Below, piece after piece: positions 6,774 through 63,147 of a DNA stretch of 64,000 nucleotides; the stretch's first letter is position 1; every line of letters begins with the position of its first letter. The stretch comes from Squalus acanthias. Taxonomy: Eukaryota. A model generated the notes under the pieces. That model did not search any database. It was not told the origin of the DNA and worked only from the letters and a program-made list of their open reading frames with translations. Location of the stretch: NCBI GenBank assembly GCA_030390025.1, contig CM059431.1, positions 127,102,001-127,166,000 of the forward strand, given 5' to 3'. The position numbers and the translations under genes are program-made.

Positions 6774-7437
6774 GGCCCAAAAATTAGTGAGGGAGCCTTC
6801 GTGCGAGGGTAAGGCTTCCCCGCGATCTCTCACTGCGCGCTGGCTTTTTCAGTCCCAGCTCGCACGAACTTGATGTTCTGGACAGCAGCTGGGCAGTGCT
6901 TCCGTATCCCACAGGCGCAGTTAATTCGTGCGAGCTGTGGGATCACGTGACTCAGTTAGAGCCAATGGCAGCACACCATCTTTCATTCATAGCTTTCACA
7001 TAAGTGCTGTGAAAGCTATGAAACTATACCCCCCAAAAGAACAGCTAAACCTCAATTAAATTTTTTTTTAAAACCATCACATTAATAAAATAAGTATAGT
7101 TAAATAAATTAACCATTTTAAACAAAAAATTAAATTTTTGAAAAAATTTAAAATCTTTTAAAAAGTTATAAAAATAAACTTACCTGTCTTTAAAGTCTCT
7201 AAAAAAGATATACCTGTTAAAAAAAATTCAAAATAATACTTAATTAACTACTTACCTTGTTAAAAGAGGGTCTTACGCCTCCTTTCTTTATGTCTAAAAT
7301 GTTCTATGCTTACCTGCGCGTTCAAAGCACTAAGTGCACAGCGTGCGCGCAGCCTGTAGCGCGCACGCGGTTCACCTAGGAACCGCCCCCTTTTGAATTC
7401 ACCAAGTGCCGGTTTTCAGCGCACTAATTTTTGGGCC
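6774..7437. mobile_element. Harbinger-type MITE (family B, AT-rich core)
   Basis: 16-bp TIR GGCCCAAAAATTAGTG / CACTAATTTTTGGGCC, TSD ATT. A related inverted copy lies at about 26725-27446. Confidence 0.88.
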
Positions 7438-9906: not shown

Positions 9907-10294
9907 TGTCCGTTAATTTGCATGCCCTATATCTTTCACATACATGCACACAATTTATTTCTCTTTCAGTATCAAATTGCGTCCCCATGTGAATTCAGTT
10001 GTATTAATCTGCTATAGCTCTGCTACATGCTAAAACAAAACCATCTGTCATCATGTGCAATCAGATCACAGGCACAAATGCATGGAGATTACCTCAATTA
10101 CTGCTGTTATGGTGATGGGATTGTTTCTACCAGTATTACCACAGCATTACTATTAAGTGAGAATTAATTGAGAGGAAGCATTAGAAAATAAAATGCAGAA
10201 GGAAAACTGATGCTTTTAAAGGAGGTATAATAATAGGGACATTTTAACAAAGTGGGTCTCAGGGCCCCTCAGTGAGGCGTTCAGCACCCTCAGC

Positions 10295-11950
10295 TCCGAT
10301 CACCAGCCTCCCCCCGACCCTCCCGATCACCAGCCACCCCTCAACGCTCCCGATCACCAGCCTCTACCCCCACCTGATCACCAGCCTCCCCACGAGCCTC
10401 CCGATCACCAGCCTCCCCCCCCGACCCTCCCGATCACCAGCCTCCCCCCCGACCCTCCCGATCACCAGCCTCCCCCCCACCCTCCCGATCATCAGCCTCC
10501 TCCCCGACCCTCCCGATCACCAGCCTCCCCCCCCGACCCTCCCAATCACCAGCCTCCCCCCGACCCTCCCGATCACCAGCCTCCCCCCGACCCTCCCGAT
10601 CACCAGCCTCCCCCCCGACCCTCCCGATCACCAGCCTCCCCCCCGACCCTCCCGATCACCAGCCTCCCCCCAGCCCTCCCGATCACCAGCCTCCCCCCCA
10701 CCCTCCCGATCACCAGCCTCCCCCCCCGGTCCCTCCCGATCACCAGCCTCCCCCCCAGCCCCCCCGATCACCAGCCTCCCCCCCGACCCTCCCGATCACC
10801 AGCCTCCCCCCGACCCTCCCAATCACCAGCCTCCCCCCCACCCCCCCCGATCACCAGCCTCCCCCCCGACCCTCCCGATCACCAGCCTCCCCCCGACCCT
10901 CCCGATCACCAGCCTCCCCCCCAGCCCTCCCGATCACCAGCCTCCCCCCGACCCTCCCGATCACCAGCCTCCCCCCCAACCCTCCCAATCACCAGCCTCC
11001 CCCCCGACCCTCCCGATCACCAGCCTCTACCCCCGACCCTCCCGATCACCAGCCTCCCCCCCACCCTCCCGATCACCAGCCTCCCCCCCAGCCTCCCGAT
11101 CACCAGCCTCCCCGCCGACCCTCCCGATCACCAGCCTCCCCCCCACCCTCCCGATCACCAGCCTCCCCCCGACCCTCCCGATCACCAGCCTCCCCCCAGC
11201 CCTCCCGATCACCAGCCTCCCCCCCCCACCCTCCCGATCACCAGCCTCCCCCCCCGTCCCTCCCGATCACCAGCCTCCCCCCCAGCCCCCCCGATCACCA
11301 GCCTCCCCCCCGACCCTCCCGATCACCAGCCTCCCCCCGACCCTCCCAATCACCAGCCTCCCCCCCGACCCTCCCGATCACCAGCCTCCCCCCGACCCTC
11401 CCGATCACCAGCCTCCCCCCCAGCCCCCCCGATCACCAGCCTCTCCCCAACCCTCCCAATCACCAGCCTCCCCCCCGACCCTCCCGATCACCAGCCTCCC
11501 CCCCAGCCCTCCCGATCACCAGCCTCCCCCCCGACCCTCCCGATCACCAGCCTCCCCCCCACCCTCCCGATCACCAGCCTCCCCCCCACCCTCCCGATCA
11601 CCAGCCTCCCCCCCCGACCCTCCCGATCGCCAGCCTCTACCCCCGACCCTCCCGATCACCAGCCTCCCCCCCGACCCTCCCGATCACCAGCCTCCCCCCC
11701 ACCCTCCCGATCGCCAGCCTCTACCCCCGACCCTCCCGATCACCAGCCTCCCCCCCGACCCTCCCGATCACCAGCCTCCCCCCCACCCTCCCGATCGCCA
11801 GCCTCTACTCCCGTCCCTCCCGATCACCAGCCTCCCCCCGTCCCTCCCGATTACCAGCCTCCCCGCCAGCCCCCCCGATCACCAGCCTCCCCCGACCCTC
11901 CCGATCACCAGCCTCCCCCCCCAGCCCTCCAGATTGCCAGCTTCCCCCCA
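10295..11950. repeat. C-rich minisatellite, unit about 26-28 bp (CCGACCCTCCCGATCACCAGCCTCCCC), about 60 copies
   Basis: Direct tandem repetition with variable C-run length. Confidence 0.97.
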
Positions 11951-12206
11951 GTCCACGCTTTGAACCCCCTGCTACTAGTACGATAGCAAAATACTGCAGA
12001 TGCTGGAAATCCGAAATAACAACAGAAAACGCTGGAAAAACTCAGCAGGCCAGGCAGCATCCGTGGAGAGAGAAAGAGAGTTGACGTTTCAGGTCGATGA
12101 CCTTTCATCAGAACTGGGAAGAGCTGGAAATCAAATAGATTTAAGGCCAGGGTAAAGCTGGGAAAAGGGGGAGGGGATAAAGGAACAAAGGAGGAGATGA
12201 AGAGAC

Positions 12207-14390
12207 ATCCCCTCTGACCTTCCCCTCTCTGACTCCGAACGATCAGTCCTCAGCAAAGGCCTGAGCTTCATCCCCTTACGCCCCCATCTCAATGAATTTC
12301 GAGCTCGGCACGATGCTGAGCTCTTTTTCCGCCGCCTCCGTCTCCGTGCCCACTTCTCTGGCCAGGAGTCTTCCCCCCGCACGGCTGACCCTTTCTCCCG
12401 CTTTCAGAATTCTCGTTCCACCTGGACCCCTCCCTCTGGCCTCTTACCCTCTCTTGATCTTTTCATTGCTAACTGCCGCCGTGACATCGGCCAGCTCAAT
12501 TTCTCTGCTCCCCTCACTCACTCCAACCTACCTCCCTCTGAACTTGCAGCACTCCATTCTCTCCGATCCAACCCTGACATTGTCATTAAACCTGCTGACA
12601 AGGGTGGCGCTGTTGTTGTTTGGCGAACCGACCTCTACCTAGCGGAAGTTGAACGCCAACTCTCTGACACCTCCTCCTACCTCCACCTGGACCATGACCC
12701 CACTACCGAACATCAAGCCACCGTGTCCAAGACTGTCACTGACCTCATCTCCTCTGGAGATCTTCCCCCCACGGCCGCCAACCTCATAGTTCCCCAACCC
12801 CGCACAGCCCGCTTCTACCTCCTTCCCAAGATCCACAAACAGGACTGCCCCGGTAGACCCATCGTTTCAGCCTGTTCTTGCCCCACGGAACTTATCTCTT
12901 CCTATCTCGACTCTATTTTTTCTCCCCTTGTCCAGTCTCTTCCCACCTACATCCGCGACTCTTCCGATGCCCTCCGCCATTTTAACAGTTTCCAGTTTCC
13001 CGGCCCCAACCGTCTCCTCTTCACTATGGACGTACAATCCCTCTACACCTCCATTCCCCACCAGGATGGCCTGAGGGCGCTCCGCTTCTTCCTTGAACAG
13101 AGGCCCAACCAGTCCCCATCCACCACCACCCTCCTCCGCCTGGCTGAACTTGTTCTCACATTGAACAACTTCTCCTTTGACTCTACCCATTTCCTCCAAA
13201 TTAAAGGTGTTGCTATGGGTACCCGCATGGGTCCTAGCTATGCCTGCCTTTTCGTGGGATATGTGGAACACTCTTTGTTCCAGTCCTACTCGGGTCCCCT
13301 CCCTCACCTCTTTTTCCGGTACATTGATGACTGTATCGGTGCCGTCTCCTGCTCTCGCCCTGAACTAGAACATTTCATTCACTATGCTTCCAATTTCCAC
13401 CCTTCCCTCACCTTCACATGGTCCATCTCCGACTCTTCTCTTCCCTTCCTCGACTTCTCCATCTCCATCTCTGGGGATAGGTTATTGACTAACATTCACT
13501 ACAAGCCCACCGACTCCCACAGCTACCTGGACTACACTTCCTCCCACCCCGCCTCCTGTAAGGACTCTATTCCATTCTCCCAGTTTCTCCGTCTCCGCCG
13601 CATCTGCTCTGACGATGCCACCTTCCATACCAGTGCTTCCGACATGTCTTCCTTTTTCCTCAACCGAGGATTCCCCTCTACCGTGGTCGACACGGCCCTC
13701 GACCGTGTCCGTTCTATCTCCCGCACATCTGCCCTCACCCCTGCCCCTCCCTCCCGGAACCACGATAGGGTTCCCCTTGTCCTCACCTTTCACCCCACCA
13801 GCCTCCACATTCAACGGATCATCCTCCGCCATTTCCGCCACCTCCAGCGTGATCCCACCACCAAACACATCTTCCCCTCACCTCCCCTTTCAGCATTCCG
13901 CAGGGACCGCTCCCTCCGCGACACCCTAGTCCACTCCTCTACCACCCCCAGCACCCCTTCCCCTTCGCCCGGCACCTTCCCGTGCACGCGCAGGAGATGC
14001 AACACATGCCCTTATACCTCCCCTCTTCCCACTGTCCAGGGCCCCAAACACCCCTTCCAGGTGAAACAGCGATTTACTTGTACTTCCTGCAATTTAGTAT
14101 ACTGTATTCGCTGCTCACGATGTGGACTCCTCTACATTGGGGAGACCAAACGCAGATTGGGTGACCGCTTTGCGGAACACCTCCGTTCAGTCCGTAAGGG
14201 GGACCCCGAGCTCCCGGTGGCCTGTCACTTTAATTCACCGCTTCACTCCCACTCTGACCTCACCGTCCTCGGCCTAATACACTGTTCCACGGAAGCTCAG
14301 CGTAAGCTCGAGGAACAGCACCTCATCTTTCGTTTAGGCACGCTACAGCCCTCTGGACTCAATATCGAGTTCAACAATTTTAGATCATAA
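12207..14390 (+). CDS. Penelope RT + GIY-YIG endonuclease; frame open from the truncation point (about 727 aa, native start missing)
   Basis: Manual translation shows no stop from 12207. Motifs IKPADKGG, GVAMG, RYIDD, C-x4-C-x2-C, VYCIRC..CGLLYIGET and RFAEH. Confidence 0.93.
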   Translation: MPSDLPLSDSERSVLSKGLSFIPLRPHLNEFRARHDAELFFRRLRLRAHFSGQESSPRTADPFSRFQNSRSTWTPPSGLLPSLDLFIANCRRDIGQLNFSAPLTHSNLPPSELAALHSLRSNPDIVIKPADKGGAVVVWRTDLYLAEVERQLSDTSSYLHLDHDPTTEHQATVSKTVTDLISSGDLPPTAANLIVPQPRTARFYLLPKIHKQDCPGRPIVSACSCPTELISSYLDSIFSPLVQSLPTYIRDSSDALRHFNSFQFPGPNRLLFTMDVQSLYTSIPHQDGLRALRFFLEQRPNQSPSTTTLLRLAELVLTLNNFSFDSTHFLQIKGVAMGTRMGPSYACLFVGYVEHSLFQSYSGPLPHLFFRYIDDCIGAVSCSRPELEHFIHYASNFHPSLTFTWSISDSSLPFLDFSISISGDRLLTNIHYKPTDSHSYLDYTSSHPASCKDSIPFSQFLRLRRICSDDATFHTSASDMSSFFLNRGFPSTVVDTALDRVRSISRTSALTPAPPSRNHDRVPLVLTFHPTSLHIQRIILRHFRHLQRDPTTKHIFPSPPLSAFRRDRSLRDTLVHSSTTPSTPSPSPGTFPCTRRRCNTCPYTSPLPTVQGPKHPFQVKQRFTCTSCNLVYCIRCSRCGLLYIGETKRRLGDRFAEHLRSVRKGDPELPVACHFNSPLHSHSDLTVLGLIHCSTEAQRKLEEQHLIFRLGTLQPSGLNIEFNNFRS

Positions 14391-17115: not shown

Positions 17116-17803
17116 ATGGCTATGGCTGTTCCCTCTCCCAGGGAAGGAGTTTGTTGGTTCACAGACATGGCATTGGAGGCATTGGTGGCAGGAGTGGAGC
17201 GAAGGAGGGCAATGCTGTTCCCGGTCACTGGAAGGAGGCCATCGCCTCAGGTGTTCAGGGCAATGTGGAGAGAAGTGGCCCAGGAGGTCTCGGCCAGTAG
17301 TGTGGTGGAACGCAGCCTGACACAGTGTCGCAAGAAATTCAATGGGCTGGATTTTCATAGGGCCGTGGAGGTGGGTTTGGAGGCATGTGGGGGGTGAAAA
17401 TTGAGAAATGTGGCAGGCGGACCTGATCCCGCCTCCATTCCGCCTCCACGCAATTTTGATAAAATGGTGTGCGGTGTTCCTGACTCCGTCCCGCCTCCAA
17501 GAGGTGGGAAAGGCCATTTATGCCCTTAACAAGCCCTAAATTGGCTCTGTAATGCCATTTTGAAACATTTTAGCTAGTTTAACCCTTTTCCGACGTGAAG
17601 CACGCCTGATGTGAAACACGCCAGTGAAACCTGGCGGGAGCACAGGTGGATAGCTGACTATCAGCTGCAGGTCTACTATTACAATGGAGATGTGATGAAG
17701 GTAGTAGTAGTATTAGGTCTGAAAGTCGCCTCTGATGCTGCTGCATTGAATGTCTTCAGAGACTGCCTGGCCTTTGCTGTGAGAGGACCTGGATGCAAAA
17801 TAA

Positions 17804-17843
<40 letters not shown>

Positions 17844-19764
17844 TGCTGCTCATTTTGCATCCAGGTCCACTCACAGCAAAGGCCAGGCAGTCTCTGAAGA
17901 CCTTCAATGCAGCAGCAATGATGACATCATCAGAGGCGACTTTCACACTGAAACCACTAATTGGTTCATGGGTTCCCACATGCTGGAACATAATTGCCCA
18001 ATTAGGTGAAAATTGCATCAATCTCCCACATCCAATTGCAGTCGGGTGGATAACACGAAATGCGGATGACACGACCCCAACCCGCCCCAGTATCAAAATC
18101 CAGCCCAATGACTTCAGTCGGGTGGTCAAGGTGAGTACATGCTTCAACAGCTCCTACATACCAGCATCTGACCCTCAGTCTGTGCACACTGCACAAACAA
18201 CCAAACCCCCACCACTCACCCACCAAACATTTTCACCTACTCAAACTCACATCCACATCTCATGCCTTGCCTACAATCACAGCTATTCAACGACGGCAGA
18301 CACATCTCCCAAACACATAGCTGGACTCTGAATCAAGCATATTTGTTTCTCTTACAGGCCAAGATGGCCCACAGTAGGACGGAACAGCAGAGAACAGGCG
18401 GGGGTGATGCTCAACTCCAACAGCTCTGAGACCTGGAGGAGTGAGTGCTCCGACTCATTGGGCAGTCAGTGACGTCGACCCCCTTGGGAGCAACAAGGAT
18501 GTTCATCCCCTCTCCTCTCATCCCACTTCCCCCTCACACCACAAACCTTTCCCACTTTCCACCTCCTGAGAATGCCTGCATTCCTTGCTTCATTCCTGTC
18601 CCCCTGCCCTCATATTAACACGAGTGTTGTGCCTTTATGCTTTCAGATAATCAGCAACCAGATGACCAGCCTATCCCTGAGCCCCCCACTGAGAGTAAGG
18701 AAGGAGAAGAGGAGGAGGAGCAAAGCACCACGTCACTGCATGTCTCACCCGCAGGCACCACCTAAGATACTGGGACTACGTGATCTTTAGAGGCTAGTAT
18801 AGTAGCGGGACCTGCACAGGGTGATGTACCGGGGATGAGCGGGCTGCAGCAAGGCCAGGGGGAAAGGGCAGCTCGGGAGCCAGCTCCCCAGAGGGCGAGT
18901 TCATGTGCAAGTTCTGCTGCACAGGACTCAGATGAGGACCTCGATGGGGAGGCGTTCACAAGAAGGGTGATGGCGATGCACACCGAGATGATAGGTATAA
19001 TGGCAAGGGTGCCTGAGAGCCTCTCAGCAATGGTAAGGAGCGTGGAGGAGTCTGCCTCCAACATTGCACAGAGCTCTGCGCACACCATGGAGCCCATCAT
19101 TTCCACTGTGCAGAGGATAGTGGACTCCCAGAGAGACCGTGCAGATCCAGACCTCATGACGCGTGTCATGGGCGACGTGGCAGCTTCCATTGCAGCACAG
19201 GTGGAAACGACGCAATGTCTTGGTGCTGTAATGCAGTCAATGGTTGCTGCCATCGAGTCTCAGACTGCTCTCATGCAGTCTCAGCTTGATGTCACGAAAG
19301 ATCTGTCTGCTGCTATTGTCGCTGGGTCCACCACAGTCCACCGGGGATCTCAAGGTGTCGCAGCAGGCCAGCAATCTGTGCTCCAGCAGATTGGTAGGGA
19401 TGCTGAGGTGCTGCCCCAGGAGAGTGGGAGTGGGTGAGTGGAGCAGGAACCTGCTGTCCTCTCTCAGGATGACAGCATTCCTGATCCCACCACTGCCACT
19501 CCGCCATTGCACTTGTTGCTGCCTGTCATCCAGCCAGCCCAGACTGCCGCCGCCCAGCCTGAGGTGGTGCAGTCTACAGCCGGGCCTTCCAGACCCAGAG
19601 CTGGTCGAGGGCATCCTGCAAGGCCATCTGTAGTCTCTGGCAGCAACACTCAGCAGCCTTTCACCAGCCCTGCTGCAGCCACTGGGGAGACACTACGTAG
19701 GAGCACTAGATTAGGAAAGGGGACTATAAAGAGGGCAAGTAAGGGTTTGCACAAAGGTGATTAG
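17116..19764 (+). pseudogene. Harbinger Myb/SANT-like (trihelix, NAIF1/MSANTD-like) gene, three exons, disrupted
   Basis: Exon 1 FTDMALEALV...WREVAQEVSA...TQCRKKFN|DFSRVVK ends at 18130 (GTGAGT). Exon 2 starts 18358 (TTACAG|AKMAHSRTEQQRTGGG). Exon 3 starts 18647 (TTTCAG). Premature stops present. Confidence 0.85.
17344..18106. mobile_element. Harbinger MITE family C nested in Myb exon 1
   Basis: TIR GGGCTGGATTTT / AAAATCCAGCCC, TSD AAT; removal restores KKFNDF. Internal (CT)n. An inverted copy lies at 54965-55599. Confidence 0.92.
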
Positions 19765-53220: not shown

Positions 53221-54964
53221 TCACAAGGCAAACTAGACGAACTTTAGTTTATTTTTGTCTAGCAATTCTTACATTCCTATGTAAAATGATAACCACATGC
53301 AGGCCCTGAGGTCACTCTCTGAGGATGTACGGCAATTGAGATGCAACTCTTGAGTCTACAGATGTCCTTTGCGGCAATATCACAGAAGCTTTGTCTTCAT
53401 TGCAATTACCAATGGAGCATGTGGCAGTTACAGTGGAATCTGCAGCAGATCTCCACCCCCACAGAATCAAAGAATGCAGCTCTGGAAGCAATAAGGGACA
53501 AACTGGAGTGCAATATAAATCGAGGCTTCCAAACTTGCCGACTGCTGTTTGTCGGGGCTTTCAGGTTCCGATTTCTGCCATTAGACCAGTATTCCTGCTG
53601 ATCATTAGAGCCACAGTCCCAGGGCTCAGTGGAATGTTGATGGCTGGCATTGACCTGCCTGATACTGCTGCTTCTCAGGGCAACAGCACATGCCAGGCCT
53701 GTGATTTTTCCCTCACAGCACGACATCAGTGGAATGTGGGGCGGCACTGTTGTGCCCAGGGACAAGTGGCAGAGAAAGCTGCCGTGAGATAAGGGCCACT
53801 TCAGCCCCATGAGTCTTTTTGCACAGCATGAGCAGCCAACCACCTCCCGCGATCCTGGCCCTTGAGTGACAACTAGAAGAAACATGAAAATATGTATTCA
53901 AAAAAAGGCAACTGTAGGCACCCAGGGGAAGCACAATGTCAAGGAAGAGTAGGATGATTACATCCATTTTGGAATTCACTATAATAAAACAGAATGTGCA
54001 CTGACATTGTGCTTTACGAGTTTAAACTCATACAGGAAGGGTTGCACTTATGTGATGTTGATGTCTTCACTCAAGTGATGATGATTGGCACAGTCATGGG
54101 GCATATTGAGCTGCTGTGTTATCATGTGGTAGGATGGGTTGTGTGATTGAGGGAGTATGGCTTTTTTGAGAGGGTGGGAGAAGGAGGTAAGGCTGTCTTG
54201 TCAAAGGTAGACTGTACCACAGAAGAGAAGACTTCAGTGATGACTTGTGCTGTGATGCCTCTTGCAATAAATTCTGCCTGAATCTCATTAGCTCCTTCCT
54301 GATGTGCTCCTCCTTCTCCATGATAATGGCATACAAGTATATGTGTATAGTGAGTGCTCTTGAGAACCCCTGTCTATAGGTAGGACGTGGGGGTGGGAGA
54401 GATCTGAAAATCTGCTGGTGGGCTGATCCTATGAGAAGTAAGTCCAGGAGTATGTAGGTAGAATGAGAAACAACATCTTAAAAGCATTTCCCAACTGCAG
54501 CAATCGGTATTCCAAATCTTCAGACTGTTCTGTGTCTGGAACTCCGCTCATAAATGGATGGATTGTGGAAGGGCTCAAAAGTGTAGCAAAACTTGGGGGG
54601 AAGCATTTTAAAGGTGCACAAGTGGCGGAAACAACATTCACCTGAATTTCCTCACTAAAAAAACCTGCGCCATTTATACAACACTAATACACTGAAAATG
54701 GCGAAGAACTTCACACCCCATATGTTATGTAACAGCCAGATAGGCACCGTATTAGGAACATGTCAGTTTAAACATTAACATCTCACCATTTAAACAGATT
54801 AAAATGCATTCTGATGCTTTACTTATGCCATTTAAAAGTGATTAATAGGAAGCAGCATACAAGAAAAGGGTACACAACAGAGATGAGTGTTTTGACTAAG
54901 TTGGGTTTGGATTCAGACACTTGTATCCAAGCTCATCACCAATTATGTCTAATAGAAGGTATAT

Positions 54965-55599
54965 GGGCTGGATTTTGATACGGGGCGGTTGGGGTTGTGT
55001 CATCCACTTTTCGTGTTATCCACCCGACTGCAATTGGATGTGGGAGATTGATGCGATTTTCACCTAATTGAGCAATTGAGTTCCAGCATGTGGGAACCCA
55101 TGAAACAATTAGTGTTTTCAGTCTGCAAGTCACCTCTGATGATGTCATCATTGCTGCTGCATTGAAGGTCTTCAGAGACTGCCTGGCCTTTGCTGTGAGA
55201 GGACCTTGATGCAAAATGAGCAGCAGCAGCCCTAAGTCTGCTCCCAGATATTTCTTCACCACCACCACATTGTAATAGTGAACCTGCAGCTGATAGTCAG
55301 CTATTGAAATGTGCTCCCGCCAGGTTTCACATTCGTGGTTCAGAACAGGCGTGCTTCACGTAGAAAAAGGGTTAAAATCACAAAGGCCTTTCAAAATGGC
55401 ATTATAGAGGCAATTCAGTGCTTGTTAAGGGTCTTAACGGCCTATCCCGCCTCTTGGAGGCGGGACGGAGTCGGGACCAGCAGACACAATTTAATGAAAA
55501 TTGCATGGAGGCGGGCTTATGCCCGCCCGTCAGTTTTTGCAATTTTAACCCCCCACACACCTCCAAACCCGCCTCCACGGGTCAATGAAAATTCTGCCC
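54965..55599. mobile_element. Harbinger MITE family C (inverted copy of 17344-18106)
   Basis: TIR GGGCTGGATTTT / AAAATTCTGCCC; TSD TAT/TGT. Confidence 0.88.
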
Positions 55600-55602
55600 T
55601 GT

Positions 55603-57995
55603 GTGTCAGCTGTGGCTCAGTGGGTTGCACTCTCTAAGTGGGAGGGGCTAGGAGTGAGCAGGTGCTGCTGGGTGCTTGATTACTGCAGGGAGTTGGAGTG
55701 AGTTCGTAAAAAGTTGTTGGTGTTTTTTTTTTCAGGTTTTAGGGCCTTTTTGGGCCGTAAACAGCAGCCAGATGGCTGCTGGGGGGCCCCAGGAGGTTTG
55801 GAAAAGAAAACACGGTGGTGGTTCAGTGTGAGGATAAGGAGATACGAGCTTGGGATATTATCCAGGCGGTACATGAGGACTGCGGCGAGGGAAGCTGTTT
55901 TGCTTGCCGACCAAAGCCGAATGTTGGGTTCGAAGTGCCGGTCAGTGGCCGAGAGGAGGTGGAAAGACTTTTACTGAGTTTGAAGGTTGTAGATAAGTTC
56001 TTGGAGGTATCTCTGCTATATTCTGAAGAGCTGATGGTCTCATTCTTAAACCTGCCGGTTTATATTGAGGACGTTGTGCTAATCAAAAAGTTGGAGTTGT
56101 GGGACATTAAAATATGCTCGGTAATAAAGAGGAGATACTATCCAGGAACGCGGGTAGCAGATGGAACCCGTTATGTAAAGGTACGGTTCCCAGAGGGGGT
56201 GAAGTCATTGCATGAAATTCAAGACAATGGAAGAAGTACAATTCTTTTGGGTACTGCATGATAACCAGGTGAAGGTTTGTTATTATTGTCTTGGACACGA
56301 CCATCTTGTAAGAAGCTGTCCAGGCTTGTACTGTTATAACTGTGGTGAGTCTGGACTCATCGCTCGGAGCTGCAAGGCAGAGTGCTGTGGGGTGTGTCAC
56401 AAAGGCCCCATCCGCTGTGAGTGTGAGGCAGAAGGAAGCCCCTTGAGTGATGAGGAGATGGGAGAAGGAGAAGGAGAAGGAGCAGGAGGTGTGAGTGGAG
56501 CCACTGGAGGAGCAGAGCAGGCGGAGGAACAGCTGGTGAATGGAAGGAGAAAAGAGTGCAGGAAGAGGCAGAAACTAGCGGAGCAGAGAACAGGATGGAG
56601 ATGGTGGAAAACACACCAAGTACAGTGGAAAAGGACAAAGACAGCAGTGGGCAGCACGGGTCGAGGGCCATAATACGGCTCGGCTCTCCCTAAAGAATCT
56701 GGTGTCCGCGGGGGGAGAGGAGGTGGGAGCAGGCTGTGGGGTAAGTGTAAGTTCTCCAAAGAAAGATGGGTAGTCGGACATCTCAGGGAGCAGGAGGGGG
56801 CAAGACAAGAAGAGGGTGCAAGAGGCAGGAGCCCTAAAAGAGCAGCAGGATGGGAGCAGGGAGACAATGACGCCAGAAGGGAGCAAGACAGGTGCAGATG
56901 CACCATTGTCCCAGAGAGAGAAGAAATGGGGAGCAAGGGTCAGTGGTGGAGATGAAGCCAAAGGGAGTGGCACTGTTGGAGAAACCGTGATAACAGGAAG
57001 ACTCTCTAAGGGAGATTATGTATCTGACAGGGAGCAGGGACGGGAGGTTACAGAAGAGCTCGAGAGTGAGGAGTCAGAGGGGGACAGAAACATGGAAGTG
57101 GGGGGTGGGGTGGCATCGTGTAGAAAGGGAAAGGTTAGTGAGGAGCAGAAGGAGGGAGAAGAGGCAGCTCCTCGGCCCAAACCTAATGTAAGGAAGAGGC
57201 TGCAACTGCAGGGAAGGTTCAAACAGGAGGTGAAAAAGAGCCGGAGGCTGCAGGATAAAGCAACAGCTGCCCAAAAAGTTGGGAAGGAGCATGAGAGGAG
57301 GGAAGGGCCGGAGATTAAATGATGGGGGGATTATCAGGCACACTTCCCTTATTAGGAGCCATGATTACTGATCAATTTTTAAAGTACAATAGATTAGTAT
57401 ATGTTACGGGAGACAAATTAAACTTTAGGTTTTGATGTTAATATGTGGTGGAGGAATGGGTGTGCAGAGCGGCGGAATGGATTTGTATGATACAATGGAA
57501 TGATTACGATGTTGTAAATGTTTTTAATGCTCAATAAATAATATATATTAAAAAAAAGTGGGTAGCACTCTCGCCTCTGAGTCAGTAAGTGGTGGGTTCA
57601 TGTCCCACTACAGAGAATTGAGCACAAAAATCTAGGCTGACACTTCAGTGCAGTACTGAAGGCATGCTGCACTGTCAGAGGTACTGTCTTTTGGATGCGA
57701 TATTAAACCGAGGCCCCGTCTGCTCTCTCAGATGGACATAAAAGATCCGCTAGCACTATTCCGAAGAAGAACATCGTACCCCAGCTAATAATTATCCCTC
57801 AATGAACATCACAAAAAAAGACAGATTATCTGGTCATTATTACAGTGCTGTTTGTAGGAGCTTGCTGTGCGCAAATTAGCTGCTGCATTACTAAAATTAC
57901 AAAAGTGACTATACTTCAAATGTAATTCATTGGCTGCAAAGCTCTTTGGGTGTCCTGAGGTCATGAAAGGCACTATATAAATGCAAATCTTTTGT
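55603..57995 (+). mobile_element. HE1-like SINE split in its tRNA head (55603-55634 and 57557-57995)
   Basis: GTGTCAGCTGTGGCTCAGTGGG... resumes after the insert as GTGGGTAGCACTCTCGCCTCTGAGTCAG...GGTTCATGTCCC. Confidence 0.88.
55635..57556 (+). mobile_element. L1/Tx1-like retrocopy encoding only ORF1 (zinc-knuckle protein), polyadenylated
   Basis: 16-bp TSD AGTGGGT(T/A)GCACTCTC; AATAAA at 57533 and an A tail. Frameshifted ORF about 55772-57322 with GTRYVKVRFPEGV, CYYCLGHDHLVRSC and CYNCGESGLIARSC. No endonuclease or RT. Confidence 0.82.
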
Positions 57996-58429
57996 TCTTT
58001 ACAAGGAGGTTAAAGTGAATTCCATTAATACCTTTGTCTCTGTCCTTTAGATTTTATTATGTTTATTTTAATTTGAGTAAAGTATCTCTAATGCAGCTCA
58101 TTATACTATGCAGGATAAATCCAGCAATCTCATACCCCCAGCATGGAACCTTGCTTTAAGGGAGTGTGGGTGGGAAAATCGGCACTGCATTGCTGTAGCC
58201 TTTTCACCATCCCGTGCTCCCTTTGCGCAAAACTCTCAGCTGGGAGCATGAGTTCATTCAACATAACCTTCCTTTTGGAATTCTGCAACAAATTCAATCA
58301 GATAGTGAAGCAGTTTTCTCCAAGAATGGACAGCCCATCCCATGCTAACATAGCACATTCAAATTATGATATTCTCCCATATCATTCAGTGAAATAAAAT
58401 ACTTGTCAAATCATGAGGTGCATACCACT

Positions 58430-60004: not shown

Positions 60005-60630
60005 TGTTGAGGCTGCCGCGAAACACGAATTAAGGCTGAATCCATGTGTGTTAAACAAGAGACTTTTTAATCAACTGCATGGTCAAAATGGCTGAACAGA
60101 ATGCTCCCAGAATTCTCTGGAAAAATCCTGAGGCCCCGCCCACTCTTGCCTTAAAGGTAAGGTGCCTTAAAGGGAAGGTGCATCGATATATTGTCCTTGG
60201 ACGGAAATGTGGATAATGCCCATTTAGGTGGCGATCCGCCACACAGCTCCCACCAGAATCCGCTTCGGAGGTGTGGACGAGACGGTGCGGCGGTCTGATG
60301 GGCCGGCCGGAGCGGCTCTTGTAGGACGCCGGTGGACGTGGAACGGCCGGGCGTGGAGTAGCTGGGTGAACCGGCTTGAGGGCAGGTCGGCCGCGTGGAG
60401 GTGGACGAGCTACAGGGACCTGCTCACCGGGCTCCGAGTGTGCTGGCTTGAGTCGGTCAACCGACACTTTTTCGGTCCTGTCGCCCACTTGCAGGGTGAA
60501 AAATTTGTCCCCAGCCTGTAGCACCTTGTAGGGCCCGTCGTACGGGGGTTGAAGGGGTCCGCGATGGGCGTCATGCCGGACAAAAACAAACCGTGCCTGG
60601 TGCAGGCTTAGTGGGATGTGTGAGGTGGAT

Positions 60631-62904
60631 TCACCGTGTCGGGCAATGAGCACCGGGGCGAACTGCAGCCGGTGAGGCGAAGTCGTGGCGTTGCTGGTCG
60701 GCTGACCAGGGTGTCGTGGCGGTGGGCAGGAACTCGCCGGGTACGCGCAGCGGCTGACCGTACACGAGCTCTGCTGCCGATGCATGGAGGTCTTCTTTAA
60801 CCGCGGTGCGCAGGCCGAGGAGGACCCACGGAAGTCGGTCGGTCCAGGCGCTGTCCTGGAGGCTGGCTCGAAGAGATGCCTTCAAGGATCTGTGGAACCG
60901 CTCACACAATCCATTGGCTTGGGGGTGGTACGCTGTGGTGCGGTGAATGGTCACCCCGAGATTGCGAGCGACGGCGGTCCAGAGTTCAGAGGTAAATTGC
61001 GGACCTCTGTCCGACGTCATGTCGGAGGGGACGCCGAACCGTGCAACCCAGGTGCTGACGAAGGCTCTGGCGATGTTGGCGGTGGTGGTAGAGGTCAGTG
61101 GGATTGCCTCGGGCCAGCGTGTGGTGCGGTCAACGATGGTCAGCAAGTGCGTGTGGCCTTGCGACGGCGGCAGGGGCCTGACGATGTCCACGTGGATGTG
61201 GTCGAATCTCCGCGAGGGGACGGTAAACTCCTCGAGGGGTGCTTTCGTGTGTTGCTGTACCTTGGCCCGTTGGCAGGCTAGGCAGGAGTTGGCCCAAGTA
61301 CGCACATCCTTGCGAAGGCCGCGCCAGACGAAGCGGTTGGCTACCAATTTGATGGATGCGTGGGCGCCGGGGTGGGAGAGGTTGTGGAGAATGTCGAATA
61401 CCCGGCGGCGCCAGGACGCTGGGACGATGGGCCGAGGTTGACATAGGGATATGTCGCACTTGACCATGACTGCGGTCGGGCCACAGGCGACGTCGGCCAG
61501 GCGTAGCTCTGGTAGGTTGGTGGGTGCGGAGAGCAGATCAGGGTCGGTGATCTGGTCTGCTGCGAGTTGAGCGTAGTCGACTGCCAGGTGTGTGGCGTGG
61601 ATGGTGGGGCGGGAGAGGCAGTCGGCTACCACATTGTCTCGGCCGGAGACGTGTTGGATGTCCGTGGTGAACTCGGACACTGCCGCGAGCTGGCGCTGCT
61701 GCCTGGCGGACCAGGGGTCAGTTGTCTTTGCCATTGCAAATGTCAGGGGCTTGTGTTCGACAAACACAGTGAAGGGGTGGCCCTCAAGCAAAAACCGGAC
61801 CGCCAGGAACAGCGCGAGGAGCTCGCGGTCGAAGGTGCTGTACTTGACCTCCGGGGGGCGTAGTTGGCGGCTGAAGAAGGCAAGTGGTTGCCAGGCGCCG
61901 TCGACCCACTGCTCATACATGGCGCCGACCGCGTGGTCGGAGGCGTCCGTGGTGAGCGCTACCCTGGCATTGGGCCGTGGGTGCGCGAGCAGGGTGGCGT
62001 TGGCGAGCGCGGTCTTCGTGGAGTCAAAGGCGGCGGACGCGTCTGCCGTCCATTCGACCGCCATCTTGCCGCTCCTGCCCCGGAGGGCTTCATACAGGGG
62101 CCTCATGAGGGACGCCGCTTTTGGGATGAAGCGGTTATAGAAATTCACCATCCCGAGGAACTCCTGGAGGCCTTTGATGGTGGTGGGGCGGGGAAATTGT
62201 TGGATGGCCTGCACCTTGGTGGGCAGGGGAATGGCCCCAGCATGGGTGATGTGGTGGCCGAGGAAGTCGATCTTGTCCAGGCCGAAGTGGCATTTGGCTG
62301 GGCTGAGGATGAGCCCGTGGTCGCTGAGGCGCCCGAACAGGATTCGAAGGTGTTCGAGGTGTTCCTGCTTGGAGGAACTGGCTACCGGGATGTCGTCCAG
62401 GTAGACAAACAGGAACTTCAGGTCCCGAAGGACCGAGTCCATGAGCCGTTGGAATGCCTGGGCCGCGTTTTTGAGGCCGAAGGGCATCCGCAGGAACTCG
62501 AACAGTCCGAAGTGGGTGATTACGGCCGTCTTGGGGACGTCCGCGGGGTGGATGGGGACTTGGTGGTAGCTGCACACCAGGTCGACCTTGGAAAAGACTG
62601 AGCGGCCGGCCAGTCTAGCCGAGAAGTCCTGAATGTGCGGCACGGGGTACCGATCAGGGGTGGTGGCGTCGTTGAGGCGGCGGTAATCCCCGCAGGGGCG
62701 CCAATCTCCGCCTGGTTTGGGGGCGATGTGGAGTGGGGAGGCCCAGGGACTGTTGGAGCGGCAGATGATGCCGAGCTGTTCCATGATGGCAAACTCGGTC
62801 CGTACGATCTCCAGTTTGGTCGGGTCCAGCCTGCGGGCGTGGGAGTACACTGGGGGGCCTGTGGTGGGGATGAAGTGTTCCACCCCGTGTTTGGTGGCCT
62901 CCAC
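60631..62904 (-). CDS. Gypsy Pol: RT, RNase H, integrase (C-terminus continues frameshifted to about 60245)
   Basis: Motifs MPFGLKNA, YLDD, TTDASD, YSTFDRELLA, HNLSHPG...CLAC, SDRGPQF and ANGLCERFHR. Confidence 0.92.
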   Translation of the reverse strand: MEATKHGVEHFIPTTGPPVYSHARRLDPTKLEIVRTEFAIMEQLGIICRSNSPWASPLHIAPKPGGDWRPCGDYRRLNDATTPDRYPVPHIQDFSARLAGRSVFSKVDLVCSYHQVPIHPADVPKTAVITHFGLFEFLRMPFGLKNAAQAFQRLMDSVLRDLKFLFVYLDDIPVASSSKQEHLEHLRILFGRLSDHGLILSPAKCHFGLDKIDFLGHHITHAGAIPLPTKVQAIQQFPRPTTIKGLQEFLGMVNFYNRFIPKAASLMRPLYEALRGRSGKMAVEWTADASAAFDSTKTALANATLLAHPRPNARVALTTDASDHAVGAMYEQWVDGAWQPLAFFSRQLRPPEVKYSTFDRELLALFLAVRFLLEGHPFTVFVEHKPLTFAMAKTTDPWSARQQRQLAAVSEFTTDIQHVSGRDNVVADCLSRPTIHATHLAVDYAQLAADQITDPDLLSAPTNLPELRLADVACGPTAVMVKCDISLCQPRPIVPASWRRRVFDILHNLSHPGAHASIKLVANRFVWRGLRKDVRTWANSCLACQRAKVQQHTKAPLEEFTVPSRRFDHIHVDIVRPLPPSQGHTHLLTIVDRTTRWPEAIPLTSTTTANIARAFVSTWVARFGVPSDMTSDRGPQFTSELWTAVARNLGVTIHRTTAYHPQANGLCERFHRSLKASLRASLQDSAWTDRLPWVLLGLRTAVKEDLHASAAELVYGQPLRVPGEFLPTATTPWSADQQRHDFASPAAVRPGAHCPTR

Positions 62905-63147
62905 GGAGAAGGTCGGATTGGTAAGGGCCGGGAATTCGGCCAGGAGTGCCGAGTAGTCATCCGTGGCCCGGGCGTGTCACTGTGACGCCATGTTGCCAGG
63001 TTGACGGGGGGCCATGGCGCCCAGGATGGGGGACATGGTGTTCATGTCCACGAGGCGGTGATGAGGGATGTCTACCAGTAGGCCGTGGGCGCACAGGAAA
63101 TCTGCGCTGATGAGAGGGGAGAGCACCTTGGCAGTGATGAACTCCCA

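Follow-up and report, generated by a model that had tools for sequence, protein, structure and literature searches.

The insert at positions 55635-57556 of the 64-kb window (the whole stretch of DNA that was analysed) is, in what we judge the likely reading, a decayed copy of a multi-copy LINE family that carries only ORF1, derives from a sequence-specific Tx1-type element and was moved in trans into the heads of SINEs. It is 1,922 nt long, is flanked by 16-nt duplications found by sequence comparison within the window, has the parts given below and lacks ORF2; its family is multi-copy in three organisms, and its 5' junction recurs in other copies. The features of the locus are as follows.

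55603-55634 (+): head of the host SINE, its 5' 32 nt, with an A-box-like motif at 55613-55623; aligned to empty heads
55619-55634 (+): left target-site duplication, 15/16 identical to the right one, starting inside the A-box-like motif
55635-55771 (+): 137-nt 5' UTR, T10 run at 55723; family contigs cover the region
55772-57322 (+): decayed ORF1 of ~517 codons, stop at 57320-57322
55794-56201 (+): predicted tandem RRM-like region of ORF1 (AlphaFold2, Foldseek)
56278-56424 (+): two CCHC knuckles (56278-56319 and 56332-56373), then a Cys cluster (56386-56424)
56425-57322 (+): C-terminal part of ORF1, acidic and of low complexity, with a comparable acidic tail in relatives
57319-57435 (+): 38-codon mini-frame whose ATGs overlap the ORF1 stop
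57436-57556 (+): 3' UTR with AATAAA at 57533-57538 and an A tail
57557-57572 (+): right target-site duplication, 15/16 letters as in the left one
57573-58004 (+, end approximate): remainder of the host SINE, with a B-box-like motif at 57595-57605, body and tail

When the insert and one duplication are taken out, an unbroken SINE head is obtained that can be aligned with three empty copies in the window, at 2896 (-), 40313 (-) and 15960 (-); all three copies that cover the head are uninterrupted at the site. The host SINE shares 70-77% identity with four further SINE copies of the window. The 16-mer of the duplication has no further site with two or fewer mismatches anywhere in the 64-kb window, the insert has no second copy there, and the pre-insertion site, unlike an L1-type target, is not AT-rich. 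An earlier, sequence-only reading of this DNA had given the coordinates, which proved exact, and a 16-bp duplication, AATAAA and an A tail, which were confirmed. Its description of the target as a tRNA-like SINE stands in part: A-box-like and B-box-like motifs were identified by eye in the SINE head, but neither ARAGORN nor Rfam calls a tRNA there, and 'tRNA-like' is a label that we take from these motifs. The 64-kb window contains no tRNA gene and no 5S match. We take the host to be SacSINE1-like from its length (~460 nt) rather than from alignment to a reference. For whale shark, copies of 97-463 bp are reported, with which the ~460 nt of the host are compatible.

Just upstream of the host SINE lies a repeat (54964-55599) that matches window positions 17344-18107; among the organisms of the sequencing runs described below, organisms A and B have it in great abundance, and organism E almost lacks it. 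Elsewhere in the window, an uninterrupted 729-codon frame (12201-14390, +) encodes, as judged by eye, a Penelope-type RT carrying a GIY-YIG endonuclease at its C-terminus, with a 1.7-kb C-rich tandem repeat (10285-11954) upstream of it, and a GC-rich stretch at 60051-62976 (-) contains long Gypsy-like pol frames (RT, RNase H and integrase by eye).

ORF1 begins at the sole upstream ATG after the 5' UTR, at 55772. Its frame is broken near 55788, 56205-56215, 56528 and 56667, and there is an in-frame stop at 56771-56773. The break at 56205-56215 was demonstrated by tblastn, with homology at 55791-56210 in one frame and at about 56203-56560 in another, and we infer the remaining breaks. AlphaFold2 modelled the predicted RRM-like region from a 26-row alignment with a pLDDT of 93.7, and the top Foldseek matches of this model were tandem-RRM proteins (E 1e-4, TM about 0.44). 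The decayed two-knuckle ORF1 described earlier was borne out: the frames are broken and the CCHC knuckles are present, the second lacking its His in the window copy (a degenerate position), and a third Cys cluster follows them. A profile search on ORF1, which had been proposed at the time, gave a Pfam zf-CCHC match at E 3e-4, and the relatives of the protein are retroelement ORF1s; no L1 ORF1 Pfam family is listed for the insert. At the 3' end, the A tail consists of eight A's (57550-57557), the final one being common to the tail and the right duplication.

No match to 13 full-length ORF2 relatives was found inside the insert by tblastn at E<=1, in agreement with the earlier observation that it has neither endonuclease nor RT. 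A short peptide after ORF1 had been proposed as the end of ORF2, and we find that it ends the 38-codon mini-frame. A local HMM built from 16 ORF2 C-termini placed the mini-frame ninth among 2,498 window peptides, with a non-significant E of 5.7. With an end-anchored ORF2 C-terminal profile, a test picked after the local HMM result, the end of the mini-frame ranked second of 1,663 (z 5.0) and none of 5,000 shuffles scored as high; the score was 16.9, versus 27-46 for true ORF2 ends. The top-ranked anchored peptide, at 7161 (-), comes from an AT-rich stretch and was considered a chance match on inspection. The first ~16 residues of the mini-frame resemble, by eye and qualitatively, the leader found ahead of the APE domain in relatives. 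The mini-frame is likely to be an in-frame fusion of the first ~16 and the last ~21 codons of ORF2, and the element would then have undergone an internal in-frame ORF2 deletion of about 1,240 codons.

A phmmer search with ORF1 returned 376 relatives with E<=0.001, of which the 150 listed share 33-48% identity with it. They are of CCHC type, with fish and mollusc among their sources, and in gene models 4 of the 18 scanned are fused to an APE or RT domain. Seven relative loci came from metagenome contigs (171 stretches scanned); these are distant and have no useful DNA similarity to the insert. Intact APE-RT ORF2s of ~1,280 aa lie downstream of the ORF1 relatives in L001, L002 and L004, and three of the seven loci fetched (L001, L002 and L005) are inserted in 5S rDNA. 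These last three are different Tx1-type elements that occupy about one position near the 5' end of 5S units, in a Mutsu-like manner; L002, a complete element, is flanked by 5S sequence at either end. In the best segment, the match of the window ORF1 to L001-L005 is 37-42%. A 65-row tree of ORF1 places the window sequence on a long branch outside the 5S-containing group, without a supported sister, and it is excluded at 100/100 from the 25-row group that holds L001 and L002. The insert is Tx1-type by association, through its ORF1 homology and ORF2-type end with no RT of its own, and it is not Mutsu.

No close family member emerged from the protein searches, of which one gave a single match among 296 candidates and another none among 12; a further metagenome scan (321 stretches) and a viral scan (34 stretches) contained none. 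No autonomous partner was found in the protein, metagenome and viral searches. For two of the ORF1 relatives, P0004 and P0010, all cluster members sit on contigs of ~1.8-1.9 kb, about as long as the insert, apart from one P0010 member at 2.2 kb, and clusters of other relatives sit on contigs of 5-6 kb; the P0004 and P0010 sequences may be further ORF1-only elements or else reflect assembly breaks. P0001, a Coilia grayii gene model, contains three copies of this ORF1 type, which suggests tandem or clustered elements.

Other copies were judged from the contigs of public sequencing runs, 4 of the 24 listed runs being aligned, at 80% likeness. According to the word index, at least 20 runs from 7 studies, under 6 organism labels, contain 12-41% of the insert's words, which corresponds to about 93-97% identity assuming an even spread. 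Runs X1, X4 and X13 (organisms A, B and E) have depth in all 30 bins of the region. The median depth of the body is 43,707, 178,591 and 14,075, respectively, versus 16-43 for long single contigs, a contig depth that is no copy number and translates into a crude range of tens to thousands of copies. Depth is 10^4-10^5 across the 22 body bins in the three runs and is noisy, varying 5- to 10-fold between bins. The bin with the ORF1/tail junction stands at 0.82, 1.04 and 0.89 of the median in X1, X4 and X13 (in the latter two, about half of both its neighbours), and the tail at 0.39, 1.98 and 1.60, with no strong 3' pile-up. Records that run on unlike the insert make up a share of 0.01, 0 and 0.02. 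The family is multi-copy over the whole 1.9 kb in these three organisms.

The individual breaks were read from 15 listed of 310 joint rows and 18 listed of 1,913 loose-end rows, whose ranking rule is unstated. None of these 18 loose ends lies near the junction or the 5' end of the insert, and rows at the window copy's own lesions do appear among them. Together with the even depth, this lends indirect support to an ORF2-less junction common to the copies. The contigs listed include none that bridges the ORF1/tail junction or spans the whole insert, and no whole second copy. Near 55788, 56211, 56528 and 56667 other copies show extra letters or alignment breaks, and their knuckle codon is unlike the degenerate one of the window copy, whose lesions therefore look private; the ORF1 of the family was probably open at the time of spread. 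One X4 joint, from 55966 to 56529 (depth 64.5), represents an internally deleted family copy without the second RRM and the knuckles. In organism E the repeat upstream of the host SINE is lacking (depth 36) and the whole insert is nevertheless present, so the family is not restricted to the window locus or lineage. The runs listed for the insert include no RNA runs, which has no bearing on expression.

The 5' junction was followed from the third base of the insert, 55637. Relative to the interior median, its depth in X1, X4 and X13 is 0.34, 2.72 and 1.69, the family letter accounts for 96-99.8% of it, and the alignments from this base reach back 35-36 nt, to the first bases of the SINE and no further. 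Were the flanks random, the junction words would be unique and their depth well below that of the interior, as we infer from the way contigs are built. Record 17 of X4 (576 nt, depth 39) covers 55606-55789, differs there at 28 positions and by 3 gaps, and has no alignment to the window's upstream flank; it represents another locus, with a different flank and an identical 5' junction. Other copies, in three organisms, thus repeat the 5' junction with the SINE head, and random flanks, the case that the sequence-only reading had set against its own proposal, were not seen either at 55637 or in record 17. For the 3' junction elsewhere there is a single X4 joint (57558 to 57550, at depth 47), which fits a variant tail leading into the same target. 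In run X21 (organism G), 10 reads with family letters fall on the insert, in five parts of it, the SINE body has none, and at least one read, from one read pair, extends at least 16 nt upstream of the insert; in organism G the family may exist in the absence of this SINE, and a real tRNA gene could be its site there.

A recurring junction might also be inherited, if an ORF1-only family carried the SINE head along or if an old composite of SINE plus insert was amplified. The evidence on other copies comes mostly from the 5' junction, and excerpts of PMC4494074 describe RNA-gene heads added 5' in SINEU. We consider such inheritance unlikely, given that the window SINE resumes exactly at the break with a 16-nt duplication, that nine T runs of at least four on the sense strand of the insert would stop polymerase III, that the polyadenylation signal of the insert precedes the SINE body, and that X4 implies a further 3' junction. 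In X1, X4 and X13 the SINE is 25-68 times deeper than the insert, and an ORF1-only family with little target preference could strike SINE heads simply because SINEs are abundant. To this explanation we assign very little probability: an untargeted insertion has, at the SINE density of the window, a probability of about 3e-5 of landing on that base and strand of a SINE head, and the interior-like depth of the third base would imply junction words common to many copies.

The remaining alternatives concern the family itself. Its members could be mostly full-length Tx1 elements, the loss of ORF2 being private to the window copy or to a minor subfamily; the junction has no bridging contig among those listed, its bin lies below both neighbours in two of the three runs, and internally deleted single copies do occur, as the X4 joint from 55966 to 56529 illustrates. 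Nevertheless, depth is flat from 5' UTR to tail and even across the junction in three runs, no loose end falls in 57320-57390 among the best-supported rows, where lesion breaks are listed, and the deletion is apparently in frame, with clean ORF2 ends. A deletion private to one copy, which had been raised at the outset as evidence against a family, was not seen, and we find a private loss quite improbable. The insert has the poly(A) tail and duplication that a processed pseudogene of ZCCHC3 or another zinc-knuckle gene of the host would also show, and some ESM Atlas clusters near P0004 contain ZCCHC3 RNA-binding domains (5/30 and 1/30 matches). However, no ZCCHC3 domain is listed in the frames of the insert or in 18 relatives, gene models fuse four relatives with APE or RT, the tail has an ORF2-like end, and the family is multi-copy with a repeated landing site; this origin, which had likewise been named as a refutation, found no confirmation in a retroelement-type ORF1, and its probability is close to negligible.

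Under the preferred reading of an ORF1-only family moved in trans, the founder would have been a Tx1-type element that lost ORF2 internally and in frame and retained its promoter, ORF1 and 3' end. Its transcript would be made by RNA polymerase II, as the polyadenylation signal and several T runs suggest; together, this signal and the nine T runs speak against a transcript read through from the SINE by polymerase III. The ORF1 protein would be made in cis and coat its own transcript, and the APE and RT of an autonomous partner would copy the RNA by target-primed reverse transcription, the partner endonuclease nicking the SINE head at one fixed A-box site with a 16-nt stagger. Lacking an endonuclease, the passenger would have to owe its site preference to the partner in trans. 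The promoter of the host SINE would be inactivated because the insert puts the B box about 1.9 kb from the A box. The proposal of a non-autonomous 'half-Tx1' family, put forward from sequence, gains support from the whole-length multi-copy depth and the recurring 5' junction. As a more speculative extension, which we regard as possible though doubtful, a Tx1-type endonuclease that reads the tRNA D-arm/A-box, perhaps first for real tRNA genes, may use shark SINEs as safe sites, and the ORF1-only derivative may now be its main form, splitting the promoter of each SINE that it enters and carrying a fusion of the ORF2 ends after the ORF1 stop.

If the preferred reading is true, Tx1 joins a short list of LINE lineages that have yielded ORF1-only passengers, and SINE promoters become an added Tx1 target. 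Such a passenger would offer a natural test of the RNA features (3' UTR, ORF2 tail remnant, ORF1 in cis) that a sequence-specific LINE requires for copying another RNA, and with each insertion disabling a SINE promoter, this interaction between repeat families could be counted in shark assemblies.

Non-autonomous LINEs that encode ORF1 are represented, in excerpts of PMC5753468 and PMC5786205, by HAL1, HeT-A and Ag-Sponge, from the L1, Jockey and CR1 clades. Like the insert, they retain a 5' UTR, ORF1 and the 3' end, have lost ORF2, and show poly(A) and a target-site duplication. The insert shares with HAL1 a LINE-type ORF1, the lack of endonuclease and RT, the poly(A) and the duplication. In the passages of these two sources none of the three comes from Tx1, whereas the insert has an RRM-plus-CCHC ORF1 and is apparently site-specific. 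HAL1 proper was ruled out, as there is no L1 ORF1 Pfam family and the relatives are CCHC-type.

Tx1 families are described in parts of PMC3706591 and PMC4494074 as targeting U2 (Keno), 5S (Mutsu), the tRNA-Leu spacer (Dewa), microsatellites and transposons, and the latter source calls a Tx1 family sequence-specific when >20% of its flanks are of one sequence type. Mutsu, Keno and Dewa resemble the insert in their homologous ORF1, in the ORF2-like C-terminal end and in a site near a polymerase III-type 5' end; they differ in being autonomous, whereas the insert has no ORF2 and a SINE head as target. Mutsu was ruled out (no 5S in the window, ORF1 outside the 5S-targeting tree group), as was Dewa (no tRNA genes in the window, and an insertion inside a SINE head where Dewa sits in a spacer).

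Targeting of other transposable elements, as proposed here, is described for Tx1 in excerpts of PMC4494074, with Tx1L in Tx1D, Tx1-Mar and SINEU-3. SINEU-3 is there a non-autonomous passenger of Tx1-Mar with the same preference and an expected 16-nt duplication. In that text, however, the targets of Tx1L, Tx1-Mar and SINEU-3 are DNA transposons or LTR elements rather than a SINE head, and SINEU-3, of snRNA-gene origin, encodes no protein, whereas the insert carries ORF1. Dada DNA transposons resemble the insert in targeting the A-box region of tRNA genes, but differ in their DDE protein, unrelated to that of the insert, in their short duplications and in having no poly(A) (excerpts of PMC8869645 and PMC3706591). 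Neither an ORF1-only Tx1 element nor a Tx1 element aimed at SINE heads is described among the papers listed by full-text searches; Tx1 is unmentioned in PMC13343379. Every component of the system has a precedent, and what is new is their combination rather than a principle.
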